A DNA stretch of 64,000 nt from an uncultured archaeon (GCA_938042195.1 CALIRQ010000009.1:1443-65442), one strand, 5' to 3'. Shown: positions 5,436 through 61,184, counted from the stretch's first letter. Notes: generated from the sequence alone by a model not told the origin. Made by a program: numbers and translations.

Positions 5436-6869
5436 CTATCCAGCCCCGCGGCCATATCTTCTCAGGACCCCATCCAGATGGGATAGGAAATCTAGGCAAC
5501 GCTCCGCGCAATCCCCAATGTGGCCCCTCGCGTCGAGGAGCTCTTCGATCTCCTCGGGGCCAAGCCTTTTGGATATCTCCTCATCCCCCTTCAGAAGATC
5601 CGGCAATGGATTCTCGAGACCCTCCATCACGGCCCTCCATGCCCTTTGGGAATGGGCCCTCAGCCTCTCGTGGGCCTCCTGCCGATCCATTCCCCTTTCC
5701 ACGAGCTTCATCAAAACCCTCTCCAAGCCGGCCCATGGGCCGAACCTCCTCAAATTCTCCTCCACGGCCCTCTCGTTAACCACCAAGCCTTTAAGTATCT
5801 CCAAGTAGAGCCTCAAGCACTCATCGATTGCCAGGAACGCCTCCGGCAGGATCACCCTCCTGTTCGCGGAATCGTCCAGGGTCCTCTCGAATATCGCGCA
5901 GGCGGCATTATCCCAAGCGACCTTCGGGAGGGCGCTGACGTATCTGGCTAGGGAGCACATCCTCTCCGATTTGATCGGGTTCCTCTTGAACGGCATGGCC
6001 GAGGATCCTACTTGCCTCTCTGAGAACGGCTCCTGGAGCTCCCCGAGGGTCGGGGATTGGAAATGCCTCAAATCCATCCCGAACTTATGGGCGCTCTGGG
6101 CGATGGAGGACAAGGCCGATAGAACTAGGAAATCCACCTTCCTCGGATAAGTTTGGGTCGAAACCGGGAAGCTCTCAATCCCGAGCCCTTCCATAACTCT
6201 CTTCTCCATATCCTTCGGTTTGCCCTTGCCCGATAATATGGCCGCGAAGCTGGCAGATGAGCCGACGGCGCCCTTGATCCCCTTGCCCTTGAGGGCCTCG
6301 GTCATTACGTATTCGATTAGCCCCAAGTCCAAGATCAAATCTTGGGCATAGTTGGCGAACCTATAGCCCAGGGTCATGGGCTCTGCGGGTTGGAGATGCG
6401 TCCATCCCAAGCACGGGAGGTCCCTATAGCGCGCTATCAGGCCCAAGAGGGCCTCCAAACAATCCAATAGCCTTTCGATTACTATCCCCATAGCCCCCCT
6501 CATTCTTAGGATGTCCGCGTTATCCTCTATATCCGCGGACGTTGCTCCCCAATGGAGCTTCCCCCCGCCGATCGGGCATCGCTCGGAGTAGGATTTCAGC
6601 TCGGCCATGAGGTCATGCTTTATCTCGCGTTCTATCTCCAGCGCCCTCTCCATGTCGATGTTCTCGGCGCCCATCTTGGATTTGATGTCCTCCAATTCCT
6701 TCGGGGATACCAGGCCGTACTCCGCTTGGGCCTCGGCCAACTCGACCCAGATCCGCCTCCATAGGGCCCTGTAGTGGATCTCCGAGAAGATCCTCCTCAT
6801 CTCATCGCTCCCATAGCGCCAAGTGAAGGGGGATTTGAAGGAACCATAGCCTTGGTTCGATCGCTTCAT
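5436..6869 (-). CDS. purB: adenylosuccinate lyase
   Basis: Fumarate-lyase signature GSSAMPFKRNP; 477 aa; adjacent to the pur operon. Confidence 0.85.
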   Translation of the reverse strand: MKRSNQGYGSFKSPFTWRYGSDEMRRIFSEIHYRALWRRIWVELAEAQAEYGLVSPKELEDIKSKMGAENIDMERALEIEREIKHDLMAELKSYSERCPIGGGKLHWGATSADIEDNADILRMRGAMGIVIERLLDCLEALLGLIARYRDLPCLGWTHLQPAEPMTLGYRFANYAQDLILDLGLIEYVMTEALKGKGIKGAVGSSASFAAILSGKGKPKDMEKRVMEGLGIESFPVSTQTYPRKVDFLVLSALSSIAQSAHKFGMDLRHFQSPTLGELQEPFSERQVGSSAMPFKRNPIKSERMCSLARYVSALPKVAWDNAACAIFERTLDDSANRRVILPEAFLAIDECLRLYLEILKGLVVNERAVEENLRRFGPWAGLERVLMKLVERGMDRQEAHERLRAHSQRAWRAVMEGLENPLPDLLKGDEEISKRLGPEEIEELLDARGHIGDCAERCLDFLSHLDGVLRRYGRGAG

Positions 6870-41855: not shown

Positions 41856-43640
41856 TTGCCAAGGATAGCGATTCTCGATAGGGAAAGGTGCAAGCCAGAG
41901 GACTGTGGACGCGAATGCATGCGCTTCTGCCCCGAGGTAAGGGGGGGCATCGAGGCCGTCAAGTTCCCTGAGGGTAAGGGATCCCAACCGCTCATAGCGG
42001 AGGCCCTCTGCTCGGGATGCGGGATATGCGTAAAGAAATGCCCGTTCAAGGCCATTTCGATAATCAACCTCCCCGAGAGGCTTGAGGGGGAATGCGTCCA
42101 TAGGTACGGCCCGAACTCATTCGAGCTCCTCCGCCTCCCAGAGCCGGGCGAGGGCGCCATCACGGGATTGATAGGCAGGAACGGGATGGGGAAGAGCACA
42201 GCTCTCAGGATTCTCTCGGGGGAGCTGAAGCCCAACCTTGGGGATTATGAATCCCCCCCAGATTGGGATCGAATAATCAAGAGGTTTAGGGGATCCGTCC
42301 TTCAGGAATACTTCAGGAAATTGAGCGGCGGGGAGTTGAAGGTCATCAGGAAGCCGCAATATGTCGACGGAATAAGGTCCGTTGTGAGGGGTCGCGTCCG
42401 AGAAGTGCTCGAGGGGCTTGATGAAGCGAACAGGTTATCGCGCATCAAGGATGAGTTCCACTTGGGGCCGATATATGAAAGGGAGGTCAAGGATCTAAGC
42501 GGGGGCGAGCTCCAAAGGCTTGCGATAGCGGCGGCTTTGCTCAGGGAGGCGGATGTATATATATTCGATGAGCCCTCGAGTCACCTCGATGTTTATCAAA
42601 GGCTTGAGGTCGCAAAGGGGATCAGGAGGTTGGCGGACGAAGGAAGGACCGTGTTTCTCGCCGAGCACGACCTCGCGATGCTGGATTACCTCTCCGACCA
42701 AGTTTGCATACTCTACGGCGAGCCGGGCGCCTACGGTATAGTATCGCATCCGAAGGGCGTCAGAAATGGCATCAATATTTACTTGGATGGTTACATGCCC
42801 GACGAGAACATGCGCTTCAGGGATGAGCCAATAAAGTTCAGCCCGAAGCCCCCCAGGAGGGCCGAGGATTTAGGCATACCATACCTTCGATGGCCAAGGC
42901 TTGTGAAGGATTACGGCCAATTCCGCCTCGAGGTCAGTCCCGGGCGCATATTCCAAGGGGAGGTGCTTGGGCTGATGGGCCCGAACGGTATAGGGAAGAC
43001 CACCTTCATAGAGCTATTGGCGGGCCTCGAGCGGGCCGATGTCGGCGGAGCCCCTTTGGAGGGATATGAGCTCAGCCTGAAGCCGCAATATATCTCTGGG
43101 CTCTACAGGGGGGTCGTGGGGGAACTCATTAAGGAAGCTTTGGGCGCGGATCCCCTTGAGCTCCCGGAGGCGGTGGAGCTGGTGAAGTCATTGGGCTTGG
43201 ATGGGCTTATGGAGAGGAGGGCTGAGAACCTGAGCGGGGGGGAGCTCCAAAGGCTTGCGATAGCGATTTGCTTGCTCAAGGATGCGCAGATCTACCTCTT
43301 GGATGAGCCGTGCGCCTACTTGGATATTGAGGAAAGGTTCTCCGTAGCGAAGGTCATAAAGAGGAGGGTTATGGAGGCGAGGGCTTTCGGGTTCGTTGTG
43401 GAGCACGACATAATCCTCCAAGACCTCTTGGCGGATCGGCTCATGGTATTCCTAGGGAGGCCCGGGGAGGAGGGCTTTGCCGGAGAGCCCCAAGCGCTCA
43501 AGGATGGTATGAACTCCTTCCTGAAGGATCTGGGCGTGACCTTTCGCAGGGATGCGGATACGGGGAGGCCCAGGGTTAATAAACCCGGCAGCAGGCTCGA
43601 TAGGATCCAGAAGGGATCGGGAGAATACTACTACGCTTGA
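41856..43640 (+). CDS. abce1: ribosome recycling ATPase ABCE1 (RNase L inhibitor homolog)
   Basis: N-terminal FeS domain RIAILDRERCKPEDCGRECMRFCP...CSGCGICVKKCP plus two ABC cassettes (GRNGMGKST / GPNGIGKTT, LSGGELQRLAIA x2). TTG start. Confidence 0.9.
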   Translation: MPRIAILDRERCKPEDCGRECMRFCPEVRGGIEAVKFPEGKGSQPLIAEALCSGCGICVKKCPFKAISIINLPERLEGECVHRYGPNSFELLRLPEPGEGAITGLIGRNGMGKSTALRILSGELKPNLGDYESPPDWDRIIKRFRGSVLQEYFRKLSGGELKVIRKPQYVDGIRSVVRGRVREVLEGLDEANRLSRIKDEFHLGPIYEREVKDLSGGELQRLAIAAALLREADVYIFDEPSSHLDVYQRLEVAKGIRRLADEGRTVFLAEHDLAMLDYLSDQVCILYGEPGAYGIVSHPKGVRNGINIYLDGYMPDENMRFRDEPIKFSPKPPRRAEDLGIPYLRWPRLVKDYGQFRLEVSPGRIFQGEVLGLMGPNGIGKTTFIELLAGLERADVGGAPLEGYELSLKPQYISGLYRGVVGELIKEALGADPLELPEAVELVKSLGLDGLMERRAENLSGGELQRLAIAICLLKDAQIYLLDEPCAYLDIEERFSVAKVIKRRVMEARAFGFVVEHDIILQDLLADRLMVFLGRPGEEGFAGEPQALKDGMNSFLKDLGVTFRRDADTGRPRVNKPGSRLDRIQKGSGEYYYA

Positions 43641-52837: not shown

Positions 52838-53356
52838 TCAATCCCCGGCCTCGGGCTCGCACCTCTTGGCCATCACATAGGCATCTTCCCCATCGCTATA
52901 ATAATGCCTTATCCTGTTCACTATCTCGAACTTCAGATTCCTATAGAGGCTGATGGCCGGATGGTTCGTGACCCTCACCTCCAAGTATATCTCGCTCGCT
53001 CCATAGTCCCTCAAGGCCCTCATCGCCTCGATCATGAGGGCCCTCCCTACGCCCCTCCTGCGGTGCTCCGGGAGGACCGCGATGGAGATTACGTGCCCCT
53101 TCTTGGCCAGTTTCCATCTATCGAACTCCGATAGGCTCCATTCCACTCGGCACATGACGTAGCCTAGTATCTTCCCGTTGAGCTCCGCGACTACGAAGGA
53201 GTTTGGGAAGCTCTGATGCAGATCCAAGTAGAAGAACGGCGTATAGTTCTCGGGGAGGCATTCCTCATTTATCCTCATCACCTTATCCAGATCGGCCTTG
53301 GAGAACTTCCTAAGGATGTAGTTTCCGAGGGCATATTCCTCGCCCATCCCGCCCAT
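52838..53356 (-). CDS. GNAT family N-acetyltransferase (RimI/Ard1-like)
   Basis: C-terminal 172 aa of ORF 52838..54196. ISIAVLPEHRRRGVGRALM acetyl-CoA motif. The rest of that ORF is antisense to gene 53517..54206. Confidence 0.75.
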   Translation of the reverse strand: MGGMGEEYALGNYILRKFSKADLDKVMRINEECLPENYTPFFYLDLHQSFPNSFVVAELNGKILGYVMCRVEWSLSEFDRWKLAKKGHVISIAVLPEHRRRGVGRALMIEAMRALRDYGASEIYLEVRVTNHPAISLYRNLKFEIVNRIRHYYSDGEDAYVMAKRCEPEAGD

Positions 53357-55322: not shown

Positions 55323-57827
55323 TCACTCACGAGGGAGCGGCCATCCATCCCAAAGGAAGAACTCCAAGCGAGTTTCCGACGCCCATTCGACGCGAAGATC
55401 CATCGATTTGGAGCCGTATCCCTCCGCCGCCACACCTATGGCATATTCGCCCTTCGGGAGCCAGAGCTCGAAGCGGCCATCGAGGGAGCAGGTGAAGGCC
55501 TCGGTCCTATGGGCGCTAACCCCGGCCCAAGATATGGGCCTCGGCCTGCCTAGGAAGTCGAGGCCGAAAACCATCCCGCTCACCTTCCCCAGCTTCTCAA
55601 GGCTTACGATGACCGAAACCGATCCGGGGCTGCGAGCCTCGAACTCCACCCTGCGCGTTTGCTCATAGCCGGGGACCAAGACCCTTATGGAGTATTCGCC
55701 CGGTAGCAACCCCCAATCCTTTTGTGGATATCCATCGGTGGTATCGTAGAAGTTTGCCCATCTCATGGCCGGGTTGCCAGCATATCTTTCGAACCCCGAT
55801 ACGATTAAGCTGCATTTATATTCATCATGCCTTATGGTAGTTATCTTCGCGCCCACCATCCCGCCCCTTCGGTCGTAGAGCTCGACCCTTAGGGAGGCTT
55901 TCCTCCCAATATGCTTCGGGATCCCCTCCTCCTTGAGGACCACCGTCAGGTCAACGTCGACCCCCTTCTCCAAGTCTATCTCTACGTGGCTCGTCGAGTT
56001 CAGGTATACGGGAACGAGGACCGGGGCCCGTTGGATGTAGCCCACCGTGTACGCCATCAGCATATAATCCCCGGGTTCCAAGCCCGTGTAAATACCGCCG
56101 TATTCGATATTGACCGCAGAATCGGAGGCGGGCTGGGTGGCGTTCAGGATCGCGACCACCTCGCCGAGCCAATTTACGACCTCGACATTTATCCTAGACC
56201 CGGGGTGGGCCCAAGGCCTCGGGGCCCGCGGCTTCTCCCAATCCATTGAGGTTATCGTTATGTTTAAGCGCCCTCCCTTGACCATCTCGAGGCTTACCTT
56301 CGTCAATGAGCACCCGGTGCCAACGGTGGCTATCAGGGGCTGGAGTTGAAGGTATCCCCCAGCATCCACCTCGATCCAATAGTCGCCCGGTGGCAAGCCG
56401 TAATCGAATGAGCCGCGATAATTGCGCAGGCCCCTCAACTCAATGGATGCTTGGGAGTCCCCGGGATCGGCATGGGAGAAGCTCAGGGCCGAGAGCCGGC
56501 CCCTGGAATCGTAGGCCCTCGCCCTAATCCAAGTGCGCCCGGTTAACTTCGAGACGGCCTTCGCCCCCGGGAGGTCCTTGAAGTTCAACATCACCTCTAA
56601 CCGACCGCTCCTATGGAGGTCCATCTCGAGGTCGATGGACGAGGTCCCGTTATGGGCGCTTATCACGTAATCCCTCGTTTGTATGTATCCCCATACATAG
56701 GCCCTAACGTAGTAATCGCCCGGCGGGATGCCGGAAACATAGGTCGCATAGTCTTGGGGAACGTGTCCCGTGTACTCGGTGGCGTTCAGCGAGAGCTCGT
56801 GGTTATAGGAATCCTCATCCGTGTAATGGAGGGGGGAGGGCACCCCGGGGAAGGAGGTGCTGGCTATGGACCTGAGATTCATATCGAGGAGCTCCACGGC
56901 GATCGGCAATTTCTCGCCCCAGCGGATTGGCCTCCCACAGCATTTCGACCAGACCGTTATGTTCGCGATTAGCCCCTCGCCTATGTAGGCGTCGATGCCC
57001 TCCAGCGATTGGCCCTTATGGACCGATATGGGCCGGTCGAGGGTCATGGGCGGAAAACCGCTGGCGGAGAACGTAAGGTTGTACGTGCCCTCGGCCAAGC
57101 CATAGAGCGTATAGGCGCCATTCGCCAATTCATTGAAGTAAGCAACGGCCTCGACCCTCCTCCCACCCGGGGTCAGGCCGCTCGCTAGGACCTTTCCAGG
57201 CCTAGTCAAGGGCTTACCATAGCGCCCGAGGTCGGGTCCCCCATAGCGCACCGTGCCCGATACATAGGCCGGATTTATGTCCGCCTCCACGACGATCGTT
57301 GGGAAGTTCTCGGCCCCTATCGATATCGTTTCGTTCACGAAGACTTTGAAAAAATATCTCCCAGCCACAGAGGGCGCTGTTAAGTTGAAGAGCCTCAGGG
57401 CGCATCCGTATCCCTCATATCCCATTTTCGGCGATGTTACGTTTAATACCCTCACCCTCCACCAGCCCGGGGCCCTCGCATCCCAAGAGTCCATAGCCCT
57501 CACCGAGATCAGGTTATAGTCGCTAGTGGCATTGGTCCAAACGTTCGATGTATCGCCTTGGTTCAGCCCCTGGAACTCCGGGGGTATGTAGACGTCGATG
57601 GAGCTGTAATTGCCCTTCAGGGTCAGCTCGAAGAGGAGGTCCCCATTTGCACCCACTAGGATCGAGCTATTGGGATAGCTCAGGCGCACGAGGGCCGATG
57701 AGTCCCCGAGGAAGAGGGAATAGCGCCCGGGCGATACCCGAGCAGTTTCGCCTGAGGCATGGGCCCAAGGGGATGGGGCCAGCAAGAGCAAAAGGATGGC
57801 AACGGTCGCCCCTCGTATCCCGGCCAC
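55323..57827 (-). CDS. large secreted surface glycoprotein with at least 6 carboxypeptidase-regulatory-like (transthyretin-fold) repeats
   Basis: Signal peptide (AILLLLLAPSPWAHA). Repeated G(L/I)xPG(D/E)Y...V...GY motif. Many N-x-S/T sequons. No C-terminal anchor. Confidence 0.6.
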   Translation of the reverse strand: MAGIRGATVAILLLLLAPSPWAHASGETARVSPGRYSLFLGDSSALVRLSYPNSSILVGANGDLLFELTLKGNYSSIDVYIPPEFQGLNQGDTSNVWTNATSDYNLISVRAMDSWDARAPGWWRVRVLNVTSPKMGYEGYGCALRLFNLTAPSVAGRYFFKVFVNETISIGAENFPTIVVEADINPAYVSGTVRYGGPDLGRYGKPLTRPGKVLASGLTPGGRRVEAVAYFNELANGAYTLYGLAEGTYNLTFSASGFPPMTLDRPISVHKGQSLEGIDAYIGEGLIANITVWSKCCGRPIRWGEKLPIAVELLDMNLRSIASTSFPGVPSPLHYTDEDSYNHELSLNATEYTGHVPQDYATYVSGIPPGDYYVRAYVWGYIQTRDYVISAHNGTSSIDLEMDLHRSGRLEVMLNFKDLPGAKAVSKLTGRTWIRARAYDSRGRLSALSFSHADPGDSQASIELRGLRNYRGSFDYGLPPGDYWIEVDAGGYLQLQPLIATVGTGCSLTKVSLEMVKGGRLNITITSMDWEKPRAPRPWAHPGSRINVEVVNWLGEVVAILNATQPASDSAVNIEYGGIYTGLEPGDYMLMAYTVGYIQRAPVLVPVYLNSTSHVEIDLEKGVDVDLTVVLKEEGIPKHIGRKASLRVELYDRRGGMVGAKITTIRHDEYKCSLIVSGFERYAGNPAMRWANFYDTTDGYPQKDWGLLPGEYSIRVLVPGYEQTRRVEFEARSPGSVSVIVSLEKLGKVSGMVFGLDFLGRPRPISWAGVSAHRTEAFTCSLDGRFELWLPKGEYAIGVAAEGYGSKSMDLRVEWASETRLEFFLWDGWPLPRE

Positions 57828-57889
57828 GGCTCCCTCGCGCCCCCATGGCTATGGTCAAGTGCCCCCGCTTCCCCGCTCCCGGGAGCCGC

Positions 57890-59131
57890 TCACTCCTTCC
57901 TCAAGGCCACGACGGGCTCCAGCCCGGAGGCCCTCCACGCCGGATACAACCCGGCGCCGATGGATAAGAGCATGGAGAGGCCCCATACCGATGCCAAGTC
58001 TTGGGGGTAGAATATGGGCTTCATGCCGGCGGCGGCCCCGCCGAACCTGAATATGGGCATAGCCCCGAGCCCGAGGTTGGCGATGAGGATCCCGACCACG
58101 ATCCCGATCGTGCCCCCGATCAGGCCTATTATTATGGCCTCGTCCAAGAAGAGCAACAGTATGGAGGAATTATTGAAGCCCAAGGCCTTTAGGAGCCCGA
58201 TCTCCTTTATACGCTCCGTAACGGATGTATAAAGGGTCGTTATTATGCCCACGGCCCCCACCACGAGCGAAACCACGGCGACGCTCTGTATATATGTCGA
58301 AATGCCCGCGAGGAGCGATTGGATATTCTGCGCTATGGCCCTGGGCGATATCACGCCTATATTGCCCCCATATTTATCCCTGATCCTCTTCTCGACATCC
58401 GCGTTTATGGATGGATCCGCCGTTACCACATACAACCCATCATACTTCCCAGATCTCCTGAACAGGGAGTTGGCGGCGGATAACGAAATATAGGCCACCC
58501 TATCCGTTTGCACCCCGTAAGCGGCCAATATCCCCTTCACTTGGAATCCCCTGCTCTCGGTCACGGTCTTTTGTATATTCCCAGAACTTTCCACCCTGGA
58601 ATGTTTCACAACGACGCTCTGCCCAAAGGTGGCGAATGAGCCCGAGAGAGCCGGCGGATGAGCCACCTCATAGCCCAAGACGACCCCTGTCGAATCATGC
58701 TTGCTCAAGAGCGATCCCTCGTCGAGCTGGAGGCCGGGATATACGCTTAGGAGCTTGGATTGATCTATGCCGATCAGGTTGATGCGCCTGCTCCTCCCCC
58801 CGGCGCTTATCTCCACTGAGTCCGAGAAGAACGGGACGACCTCCTTGACACCCGATAACGACTTTATAGTATTAACAGTTTGATCGTTGAAGGTTATGCC
58901 GGTCCCGCCCCCTCCGCCGGGGCCCCGGAACGGCGATGGGTTAACGATCAGGACGTTCGCGGCGAACCTGCTGAACTGCTCGTTGACGTAAGCGGATGTC
59001 CCCGCGTTCATACCGTTGAGGGTTGTCATCAAAGCGGAGCCGACGAGCACCATCAGGATCGTCAAGCCCGACCTGAGCTTCCGCTCCTTTATCGCCTCGA
59101 AGGCCAGCTTAGTCAATTCGAACCCGTTCAT
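57890..59131 (-). CDS. MacB/FtsX-type ABC transporter permease
   Basis: N-terminal TM, large extracytoplasmic domain and C-terminal FtsX 3-TM bundle. Confidence 0.8.
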   Translation of the reverse strand: MNGFELTKLAFEAIKERKLRSGLTILMVLVGSALMTTLNGMNAGTSAYVNEQFSRFAANVLIVNPSPFRGPGGGGGTGITFNDQTVNTIKSLSGVKEVVPFFSDSVEISAGGRSRRINLIGIDQSKLLSVYPGLQLDEGSLLSKHDSTGVVLGYEVAHPPALSGSFATFGQSVVVKHSRVESSGNIQKTVTESRGFQVKGILAAYGVQTDRVAYISLSAANSLFRRSGKYDGLYVVTADPSINADVEKRIRDKYGGNIGVISPRAIAQNIQSLLAGISTYIQSVAVVSLVVGAVGIITTLYTSVTERIKEIGLLKALGFNNSSILLLFLDEAIIIGLIGGTIGIVVGILIANLGLGAMPIFRFGGAAAGMKPIFYPQDLASVWGLSMLLSIGAGLYPAWRASGLEPVVALRKE

Positions 59132-60018
59132 TGGGATCGCCGAACCCTGCGTTTTTTCCTAATATAAAGGATGGCGATTGCGACCACCACCAGGATCGAT
59201 ACGGCAAGCGCGAAGTTCCATTGCAGGTATAAGGGCCCGCTCGATGCCCCGCCGCGGGCCTGCGGGACCTGGGATATTGGAACCTCCACAGGGATCGATA
59301 GGGAATGCCTCTCGGACAGATCGTCCAAGTAGGTCAATACAATCGTCAGGGGATACGTGCCGTTTTGGGTCCTCTCCCTAACCCTTACGTAGAGGGTGAA
59401 TGGGGCGGGCGAGTTCGGATCTATCTGGCCCAAGTAGCTTGTGCTCTCGTCCAAGGGCTCGAAGGGCTGGCGCGGAATTACGCTTACGTTGGCGTACATG
59501 GCAGCAATGTTGCCTTGGTTAAGGACCGTGCCGGCAAGCGCCAGCCTGGCCCCTGGGAAGGCGGGCTTGGGATCGAGCGAGAGGCCGTATACGACCATCT
59601 TTATCCAACCGCGGACGAAGATGTTGAAGGCATAGGTTTCCGTGTAGTAGGATACATAGCCCAATCTCTTATAGCTTATGGTTACCGAGCATGGGTAGGT
59701 ATTTCCAACGGAGCCCGACGGCGCATATATTGTGACAGGCAACGACTCGGAGGAGCCCTTCCTAAGGGATTCCATCCTCCAGCTGCTCGGCCCTATGGCG
59801 ACCAGCGGTGACGGAACGCTCAGGGCTATGGTGAGATCGTAGAGGTCCTCGTAGTTGTTGGATATTTTTATCCAGAGCGATTCATTAAAACCTGCGACCA
59901 CGAAGTTCCTCGAGGCCGTGACCTCCAGCCTGAGCACCGCCGCTGAGCAAGGGATCGATGTCCCCAAGGGGGCCAAGAGCAGGACGATGAGGATGAGTTG
60001 GGGCTTGAGGGATTTCAT
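59128..60018 (-). CDS. extracytoplasmic beta-sandwich protein with C-terminal TM anchor (COG1361-like ABC-associated S-layer-domain protein)
   Basis: Signal peptide; two predicted beta-rich domains; C-terminal NFALAVSILVVVAIAILYIRKKRRVRR. Both ends overlap flanking ABC genes by 4 nt. Confidence 0.5.
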   Translation of the reverse strand: MKSLKPQLILIVLLLAPLGTSIPCSAAVLRLEVTASRNFVVAGFNESLWIKISNNYEDLYDLTIALSVPSPLVAIGPSSWRMESLRKGSSESLPVTIYAPSGSVGNTYPCSVTISYKRLGYVSYYTETYAFNIFVRGWIKMVVYGLSLDPKPAFPGARLALAGTVLNQGNIAAMYANVSVIPRQPFEPLDESTSYLGQIDPNSPAPFTLYVRVRERTQNGTYPLTIVLTYLDDLSERHSLSIPVEVPISQVPQARGGASSGPLYLQWNFALAVSILVVVAIAILYIRKKRRVRRSQ

Positions 60019-61184
60019 CTCCCCCCACCGGTCAAGACTTCTTCCCTCTCGACGAGGCCATCCCTTAAATATATTATCCTATCCGATTTCCTCGCGAGCT
60101 CCAAGTTATGGGTGACGACTATTATGGTGGCGTTCCTCTCCCTATTCGCCTTCCTCAACATCTCCCACACCTCCCTCCCCGCCTTCGAATCCAAATTCCC
60201 GGTCGGCTCATCGGCCAATATGAAGGTTGGGGCGTTCATCAAGGCCCTCGCTATCGCCACCCTCTGCTGCTCCCCACCGCTCAAGGTCGTCGGCTTCTGC
60301 TGAAGCTTGGACCCAATCCCCATCGCCTCCAGCAAATCCCTCGCCCTCCTAGCCCTCTCCGATTTCGGCAAACCCTTCACTATGGAGGGGAGCTCGACGT
60401 TCTGAAGGACATTGGCCCTCTGAACGAGGTTATACGCTTGGAAGACGAACCCTATCTTCTCGTTCCTGAATTTCGCAAGCTCCCCATCGTTCATCCGGGA
60501 GATGTCCACGCCATCTATGTATATCTTACCCCCGGAGGGCTTATCGAGCGCCCCGAGCAGGTTGAGCAATGTGGATTTTCCGCATCCCGAGGGCCCAACT
60601 ATGCATACAAATTCCCCCCTCTTGACCTCTAAGTTCACGCCGCGAAGGGCCGGAATCTCGACCAAGCCCGTCTTATAGACCTTCGTTAGGTCAACTACCT
60701 TGACGGCGAGATCCTCCCTCACGGGCGATCGGGCCTCCGGGCGCTCAAGGATCGGCACCGCCGGCCTCAGCGTGGCCAATGATGCCAAAAGGGCTAAGGA
60801 GTAGAAGAGGAGGGGCATCAGGAACGGAGAGGGGCGGAGGGCGGCGAGGAGGGCCATCAGCTCCGATCCCGTCGGCCCGCCAATCAAATAGGCCAACCCT
60901 AGCGCTGAGGCGAGGGCCATCGCGTAATCGCCCCGGGGGGAGGCCCTAAGGATGCCGTAGATCGCGGCCGCGATGACCATCGCGGGGATCGCCGCCGAAT
61001 AAAGATCGATTTGATTCCTATTCCCGATCAAGGGCAGGCCCATATTGAGCGCGGCGGCGCCAAGCAGCAGGATCGCACCGGTGCCTTGGGCGAAGGATCT
61101 CTGAGATCTCTGCATAACGGCGGAGACCCCTTCCATGGAGAAGCCATCGGCGATAATAATCTTTTTTCTCACCCCACCATCCAC
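60015..61184 (-). CDS. ABC transporter ATP-binding protein (LolD/MacB-like) with about 150-aa N-terminal four-TM extension
   Basis: Walker A GPSGCGKST, LSGGEQQRVAIARAL and Walker B ILADEPTGNLD. The N-terminal hydrophobic region is in-frame. An internal GTG near 60738 preceded by GGAGG could alternatively start a canonical ATPase. Confidence 0.75.
   Translation of the reverse strand: MDGGVRKKIIIADGFSMEGVSAVMQRSQRSFAQGTGAILLLGAAALNMGLPLIGNRNQIDLYSAAIPAMVIAAAIYGILRASPRGDYAMALASALGLAYLIGGPTGSELMALLAALRPSPFLMPLLFYSLALLASLATLRPAVPILERPEARSPVREDLAVKVVDLTKVYKTGLVEIPALRGVNLEVKRGEFVCIVGPSGCGKSTLLNLLGALDKPSGGKIYIDGVDISRMNDGELAKFRNEKIGFVFQAYNLVQRANVLQNVELPSIVKGLPKSERARRARDLLEAMGIGSKLQQKPTTLSGGEQQRVAIARALMNAPTFILADEPTGNLDSKAGREVWEMLRKANRERNATIIVVTHNLELARKSDRIIYLRDGLVEREEVLTGGGR

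Follow-up and report, generated by a model that had tools for sequence, protein, structure and literature searches.

A type VII ABC gene trio of Bathyarchaeia that recurs beside a large surface glycoprotein and carries a four-helix membrane domain on its ATPase in one clade

Bacterial type VII ATP-binding cassette (ABC) transporters, among them MacB, LolCDE, FtsEX, and BceAB, have been studied in depth. Transporters of the MacB/Lol/FtsX type work outside the membrane rather than moving proteins across it. YknWXYZ of Bacillus resembles MacB and includes one more multi-pass membrane subunit, YknW. In type VII systems, cytoplasmic ATP hydrolysis drives movement of outer domains and the substrates lie outside the membrane (PMC8277102, where YknWXYZ is also named). 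A functional study of an archaeal member was not found in our literature searches. Here we describe a gene module whose ABC proteins fall in this family by sequence, located in a 64,000-nucleotide (nt) stretch of DNA (GCA_938042195.1, CALIRQ010000009.1:1443-65442; herein the window, with positions counted from its first letter). The host is an uncultured archaeon of the Bathyarchaeia; proteins identical or nearly identical to those of the module occur in NCBI metagenome-assembled genomes of that name.

An ABC ATPase, a permease, and a type I membrane protein with two CARDB-like β-sandwiches (herein the partner) form an invariant gene trio. This trio is the core of the module, and a large glycoprotein is its frequent associate. 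We propose, with confidence that is evenly balanced, that the four genes encode a cell-envelope machine of Bathyarchaeia in which a type VII ABC mechanotransducer acts on the surface glycoprotein. Its features are as follows, with lengths in amino acids (aa) and model confidence as the predicted local distance difference test (pLDDT).

60015 to 61184, minus strand: ABC ATPase; longest open reading frame (ORF), 389 aa from GTG 61184
60750 to 61094, minus strand: four-helix membrane domain of the ATPase, defined by hydropathy, AlphaFold2, and a five-clade alignment
60705 to 60749, minus strand: Pro/Arg/Glu-rich linker from the membrane domain to the nucleotide-binding domain (NBD); poorly conserved, pLDDT <50
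60018 to 60704, minus strand: LolD/MacB-type NBD, with Walker A GPSGCGKST, signature LSGGEQQR, Walker B ILADEPT, and H-loop H359
59128 to 60018, minus strand: anchored partner protein, 296 aa
57890 to 59131, minus strand: type VII ABC permease, 413 aa
57828 to 57889, minus strand: 62-nt spacer from the permease gene to the large glycoprotein gene, read directly in the sequence
55323 to 57827, minus strand: secreted large glycoprotein, 834 aa

The four ORFs are consecutive and share the minus strand across 55323 through 61184. The initial annotation had described a four-gene module with 4-nt overlaps, and its coordinates hold; the ATPase/partner and partner/permease junctions, read directly in the sequence, are both ATGA overlaps of 4 nt. 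The glycoprotein gene, which it had called intergenic, follows the permease gene as the fourth of the series. A GGGAG element lies inside the spacer, 3 nt ahead of the GTG start of the glycoprotein gene, and the spacer contains no terminator-like site; we infer that the gene is probably co-transcribed with the preceding three. All four genes are under purifying selection (nonsynonymous-to-synonymous rate ratio, omega, 0.09 to 0.17).

The permease consists of a first transmembrane (TM) helix, a MacB-type extracytoplasmic core domain, and three FtsX-domain TM helices, with hydrophobic segments at residues 19 through 41 and from 272 onward. It matches MacB_PCD (PF12704; residues 21 through 252, 67.4 bits against a cut-off of 27, 2.7e-18) and FtsX (PF02687; residues 284 through 406, 63.7 bits against a cut-off of 25.5, 2.2e-17). 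Its sequence matches in the PDB are Spr0695 (5xu1, 3e-19), MacB (4e-18), LolF (9e-14), YtrF (8e-11), and LolC (4e-9), as well as LolE. The ATPase matches Pfam ABC_tran (1.9e-35, 122.9 bits). The Walker A, signature, and Walker B motifs of the initial annotation are present and, together with the Q-loop and H-loop, invariant across the ATPase alignment; the AlphaFold2 model of the NBD has a pLDDT mostly between 80 and 93. Its sequence is that of a catalytically complete LolD-type ATPase. Because of these domain matches and the matches to solved members, the ATPase and permease are taken as a type VII (MacB/Lol/FtsX-type) ABC pair; judged by sequence, every feature tested agrees with membership of that family.

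Like MacB, LolCDE, and FtsEX, the window system has a permease of four TM helices whose TM1 and TM2 flank a large extracytoplasmic core domain (MacB_PCD plus FtsX), together with a LolD/MacB-type NBD with all motifs, and in sequence it resembles the solved MacB, Spr0695, LolC/E/F, and YtrF. Unlike them, it is archaeal, lacks a membrane-fusion adaptor, a LolA-type carrier, and an EnvC-type partner, and has as its constant partner a TM-anchored protein with tandem CARDB-like domains. Whereas the NBD of MacB is fused to an FtsX-type permease, the ATPase of the window's clade is separate and has a four-helix membrane domain of its own. YknWXYZ is alike in layout only, being a type VII system with an extra small polytopic component beside the FtsX-type permease; in the window this additional module is part of the ATPase chain and not a protein of its own, and there is no YknX-type adaptor. 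Comparison of the ATPase extension with Pfam, Yip1-type domains included, detected no sequence relation. The best NCBIfam models for the ATPase are LolD, MacB, DarD, and FtsE, every score lying under the equivalog cut-off; scores against the FtsEX models also fall short (TIGR02673, 207.2 against 264.85; NF038346, 36.3 against 250). No gene for a MacAB-type adaptor (membrane-fusion, HlyD-type) was found within 6 to 8 kb in window-like and related loci. With scores under the cut-offs and neither adaptor nor carrier, the system cannot be assigned specifically to LolCDE, MacAB-TolC, or FtsEX. PADLOC models gave only generic ABC-ATPase and LolE-TM similarities, and the partner and the large protein matched none of them.

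The partner comprises a signal peptide, two β-sandwiches (residues 31 through 136 and 141 through 248), a flexible linker, a TM helix (268 through 294), and a basic tail. Its AlphaFold2 model, built on a 16-sequence alignment, is confident (pLDDT 84.6), and the second β-sandwich contains the conserved motif ESxSYLGQIDPNSPAPF. Foldseek against the PDB returned generic tandem immunoglobulin-like modules only (integrin calf domains and transglutaminase C-terminal barrels). The window partner has no Pfam match above threshold (15.6 bits against a gathering score of 24.4); across the family, weak matches at E-values up to 0.1 are found to NPCBM_assoc (15 of 16 sequences, best 7e-7) and CARDB (12 of 16, best 4e-6). 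The label “COG1361-like,” applied initially, seems reasonable on such similarities. Archaeal surface proteins of the COG1361/CARDB/NPCBM_assoc kind share with the partner its two β-sandwiches, along with the weak family-wide matches, but nothing in the definition of that family calls for so strict an association with an ABC ATPase and a permease. In some relatives the partner has grown to 535 to 660 aa through extra domains of the same kind. A Cys occupies a lipobox-like position of the partner signal peptide (window 59941 through 60018) in the window's clade (SIPC/SPAC/PPAC) and in a second clade (LTAC) and is absent from other partner clades; lipid modification of the partner is possible in some lineages.

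The fourth protein begins with a signal peptide (approximately residues 1 through 24), followed by an orphan N-terminal domain (26 through 185) and six β-sandwich repeats of the CarboxypepD_reg type (186 through 834; 76.7 bits against a cut-off of 32.3 for PF13620). It had been described from the sequence as a secreted protein with at least six transthyretin-like repeats and dense N-glycosylation sequons, and this description stands. Self-BLAST detected no internal repeats; a six-fold G-x-Y...GY-x-Q motif is visible in an alignment of 97 family members. Profile–profile comparison confirmed the repeats: hhalign between segment profiles identifies six homologous units of two subtypes, with probabilities mostly of 65 to 99.6% (R2-R5 mutually 97 to 99.6%; R1-R6 96.8%; R1-R3/R5 ∼93%; R2-R6 15.8%). 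By the same method the N-terminal segment 26 through 185 is unrelated to the repeats. The protein contains 13 N-x-S/T sequons against 3.8 expected, a number reached in none of 2,000 shuffles, and the enrichment is family-wide (median 17 against 6.5 expected); cytoplasmic proteins of the window display no comparable excess.

This glycoprotein family is large and found in Bathyarchaeia, with members of ∼850 to 1,000 aa. The window's protein has neither a C-terminal anchor nor a Cys in its signal peptide. Many distant homologs (P0154-P0156, P0188-P0190, and others) end in P-E-L-(S/P)-A-T, a TM helix, and a basic tail, an arrangement that resembles a C-terminal sorting signal and is absent in the window's clade. 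NCBIfam sorting-domain models matched no archaeosortase-type signal on the anchored homologs.

These features bear on the idea that the permease works in a Lol-like manner, pulling lipidated or TM-anchored surface proteins from the membrane for transfer to an outer envelope. The best family models of the two subunits are LolD and LolC/E, solved LolF, LolC, and LolE are matched, two partner clades have the lipobox-like Cys, and distant homologs of the large protein are TM anchored. However, scores are far under the Lol equivalog cut-offs (TIGR02211, 245.2 against 307.75; TIGR02212, 104.8 against 362.45), the Cys is confined to some partner clades, and the window's large protein has neither such a Cys nor an anchor. 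No gene for a LolA/LolB-like carrier is seen in the loci, and we consider extraction of this type very unlikely.

Gene neighborhoods support a linkage of the four genes. Twelve loci were collected with a partner-protein profile and more with the ATPase and the large protein, and all were scanned with the window proteins. A partner homolog adjoins the ATPase and permease genes wherever the contig allows (L001, L003-L005, L007, L009-L011, and L013-L022), in one of three arrangements: flanked by the two genes, following that of the permease, or encoded on the other strand. The partners of L001, L003-L005, L007, L009, L010, and the window are mutually homologous, with 30 to 35% identity between clades; L008 has the ATPase and permease only. 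The glycoprotein gene lies beside the trio in ten loci, namely the window, its close relatives L001 and L012, and L015, L016, L017, L020, L022, L009, and L010. In the divergent loci it is full length and 32 to 41% identical to that of the window, and three gene orders are found overall. That the association survives gene rearrangement argues for a functional link of the glycoprotein to the trio.

Several observations weigh against a machine that acts on the glycoprotein. The glycoprotein gene is absent from the 4.5- to 8-kb flank downstream of the trio in six loci (L003, L004, L005, L014, L019, and L021), so that the link is frequent rather than obligatory, or else those genomes encode the glycoprotein at another site. 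Many distant glycoprotein homologs end in a TM anchor of their own, and the partner is therefore not simply the anchor of the glycoprotein. Gene adjacency alone cannot separate action on the glycoprotein from co-regulation of envelope genes. The four-helix extension of the ATPase, considered below, is modeled with low confidence (pLDDT 41 to 66). The initial annotation had seen in the module a dedicated system; recurrent adjacency bears out the functional linkage of its genes. Three of the loci with no glycoprotein gene in that flank, L003-L005, are extension-bearing.

The same neighborhoods can be read as those of a plain pump that confers resistance to, or efflux of, antimicrobial peptides or other toxic compounds, with the β-sandwich protein as an accessory and the glycoprotein unrelated or merely co-regulated. 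In databases the homologs are called “ABC-type antimicrobial peptide transport system” or “putative ABC transport system,” the best-scoring models include MacB, bacteriocin export, and DarD, and in several loci the trio, or in L008 just the ATPase and permease, occurs without the large protein. Yet all NCBIfam scores are under their curated cut-offs, and thus no specific substrate class is assigned; no membrane-fusion/adaptor, regulator, or peptide-biosynthesis gene lies nearby; and the recurrence of the glycoprotein by the trio in divergent, rearranged loci is hard to put down to chance. We regard a pump as unlikely, though with an appreciable probability.

A further possibility is that the large and anchored proteins are the lattice and stalk of a Bathyarchaeia S-layer or sheath, following the logic of SlaA and SlaB, and that the ABC machine powers insertion, turnover, or anchoring. 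As in the Sulfolobales pair, a large, secreted, heavily glycosylated multidomain protein is encoded near a smaller protein with a signal peptide, β-sandwiches, and a C-terminal TM helix, and the large protein is anchorless in this clade. The window partner differs from SlaB in lacking a coiled-coil stalk and in sitting inside an ABC operon; the likeness is one of layout. A cultured member of the Bathyarchaeia bears both an S-layer and an outer sheath; the proteins that compose them are not named in the report (PMC10477458). Relatives of the large protein match the anammox S-layer glycoprotein model NF052345 (Kustd1514) locally, but at domain level only (21 to 60 bits against a cut-off of 1,400). 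The partner, moreover, accompanies the ABC genes more faithfully than it does the large protein, and many homologs of the latter carry their own TM anchors. A lattice-and-stalk pair is, in our view, improbable.

The ATPase of the window differs from most of its relatives in an extension of ∼140 aa, in frame with the NBD. The initial annotation had judged this hydrophobic four-helix N terminus atypical, and it is conserved. Hydropathy segments lie at residues 34 through 55, 59 through 83, and 109 through 143, and AlphaFold2 predicts four long helices (residues 31 through 53, 61 through 80, 83 through 101, and 122 through 145, numbered from GTG 61184) and a short one at 108 through 114. The most conserved element is an IYGxLRxSxxGxY turn between helices 2 and 3; the linker to the NBD varies in length and sequence among clades. 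Basic residues, read from the sequence, concentrate ahead of helix 1, in the turn between helices 2 and 3, and past helix 4. This positive-inside pattern and the even number of helices place the NBD in the cytoplasm.

The first start codon of the ORF is GTG 61184, and the Met common to orthologs is M24 at 61115. The protein probably starts at this conserved Met (366 aa), ATG 61136 being the alternative. Four close orthologs (80 to 86% identity) align across the whole extension with a Met equivalent to M24. The NCBI gene models of orthologs, at 326 to 386 aa, thus include the extension; such long models are already public under the name “ABC transporter ATP-binding protein.” Database matches of 459 to 492 aa were rejected as extension carriers, being bacterial tandem-NBD proteins.

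In-frame GTG codons at 60758 (V143) and 60722 (V155), and the fact that most related Bathyarchaeia ATPases are short, raise the question of whether the extension is an ORF-calling artifact, with translation beginning at one of these codons and the upstream frame untranslated. Orthologs, however, keep the upstream frame, and the sole short close ortholog (P0005) is cut by a contig end. Over the extension, alignment to close relatives requires no indels at a synonymous divergence (dS) of 0.43 to 0.65: against L001, omega is 0.36 (dS 0.65, 136 codons; NBD 0.087), and against L011 it is 0.46 (NBD 0.10). The frame has 0 stops, compared with 1 to 8 in the other frames. Homologous four-helix extensions occur in divergent clades whose full-length proteins are 45 to 49% identical to that of the window (P0014/P0012/P0013; P0036/P0038/P0107/P0118; P0053/P0120/P0139; P0141/P0146/P0116) and have the IYGxLRxSxxGxY turn in common, and an extension-only profile recovers these clades. 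An artifact is accordingly barely credible, and the extension is real, rare, and clade specific.

Its rarity is apparent from a search of 1.84 billion (1.84e9) protein representatives with that profile, which returned just 12 clusters (E-values down to 1e-43). The bearers are five sequence clades that form one branch in a neighbor-joining tree of the NBDs alone. Two short sequences fall inside this branch, P0005 and P0016, the latter from a 1,087-bp contig and presumably truncated too. A single acquisition is therefore the simplest reading. Most homologous Bathyarchaeia modules have a short ATPase with a closed upstream frame (L007-L010 and L013-L022), and the extension is therefore a clade-specific add-on; regarded at first as a feature of the system, it is conserved in the window's branch but not shared by most homologous modules.

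No Pfam identity for the extension was above threshold or consistent across sequences; Squalene epoxidase (22.8 bits) and DUF2127 (E-value 0.013), each matched by one sequence only, were rejected. A profile search of the PDB gave no match below an E-value of 0.1. Nor is the extension a degenerate FtsX half (hhalign probability of 0.9% when compared with 19 aligned permeases). The idea that relatives with short ATPases have a four-TM protein encoded separately upstream was likewise rejected, the 272-aa gene in that position in L007 encoding a soluble protein.

Two kinds of stand-alone or rearranged relatives were also noted. L024 (254 through 703, plus strand) encodes a 149-aa four-helix homolog (profile E-value 1.3e-7) with no ATPase domain after it, on a 1,052-bp contig where the next gene (710 through 1033) encodes a TFS/RpoM-like zinc ribbon. 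This homolog suggests that the extension is an independent folding unit, and the fused domain may descend from a free-standing protein of this kind. In the short proteins P0137, P0143, P0145, and P0138, the four-helix domain is joined directly to the C-terminal end of the FtsX permease (e.g., ...YPAWRASQLDPVVALRHE); these resemble either assembly chimeras or the outcome of internal deletions affecting the whole ATPase-partner-permease operon.

The module had initially been thought to serve export or assembly of a cell-surface structure. Export by the ABC system is unlikely: the large and the anchored protein both come with Sec-type signal peptides, and MacB/Lol/FtsX-type transporters act outside the membrane. 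In the mechanism that we propose, both proteins would cross the membrane by Sec via these signal peptides. Cytoplasmic ATP hydrolysis would then move the outer domain of the permease, and this movement, through or with the partner, would release, position, or remodel the glycoprotein (or its ligand) on the cell surface, by analogy with the extraction of lipoproteins by LolCDE or the activation of extracellular partners by FtsEX. The four-helix domain would have both termini inside the cell and be joined to the NBD by a flexible linker, with the IYGxLRxSxxGxY motif on the cytoplasmic helix 2-3 turn, near the expected position of the NBD. On this model the domain most likely tethers each ATPase subunit to the membrane and, in an accessory or regulatory capacity, probably lies packed against the permease or against the TM helix of the partner. 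The flexible, variable linker and the cytoplasmic position of the conserved motif fit this picture.

Turning to the surroundings of the module, the element TTATTATA at window 61262 through 61270 (minus strand) resembles an archaeal TATA box; GTG 61184 follows it after ∼80 nt and the conserved Met at 61115 after ∼150 nt. The module is preceded by a divergent oxygen-detoxification set (61486 through 62802, plus strand; 62864 through 63310, minus strand), made up of a metallo-β-lactamase/ODP-type flavodiiron-like protein and a ferritin/rubrerythrin-like protein. The set is syntenic with the module in close relatives; in L001 it is found at 5640 through 7478, with a rubredoxin alongside. At 52838 through 54196 (minus strand) the listed 452-aa ORF is over-extended, and only its C-terminal ∼170 aa are GNAT acetyltransferase-like; the syntenic gene in L001 (15670 through 16179) is a 169-aa Acetyltransf_1 gene. 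A 594-aa ORF at 41856 through 43640 (plus strand) has two ABC nucleotide-binding domains (tblastn, 42141 through 42713 and 42948 through 43457); it is possibly of the ABCE1/RLI type and is unrelated to the module. The whole 64-kb window contains no transfer RNA genes and no Rfam families above the gathering score.

Literature searches found no papers on this trio, on its link to the glycoprotein, or on a membrane domain on a LolD-type subunit. The boldest interpretation, to which we attach a low probability, is that the trio and the glycoprotein are an unrecognized ATP-driven archaeal envelope-assembly machine that installs or remodels the S-layer or sheath glycoprotein of Bathyarchaeia, with a MacB-type motor coupled via the CARDB-like subunit and, in this clade, the four-helix domain. 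If true, it would be the first energized S-layer biogenesis system described in archaea, and a group that ranks among Earth's most abundant archaea would gain an identified structural protein of its envelope. The analysis defines a lineage-wide Bathyarchaeia module that is repeatedly in the company of a large glycosylated surface protein. A four-helix domain on a soluble-type NBD with a separate permease is an architecture that we did not find described for the family, and this fusion may reveal a new mode of tethering or regulating the motor subunit. The module also offers a testable handle on how the cell surface is built or maintained in an uncultured, globally abundant class of archaea.

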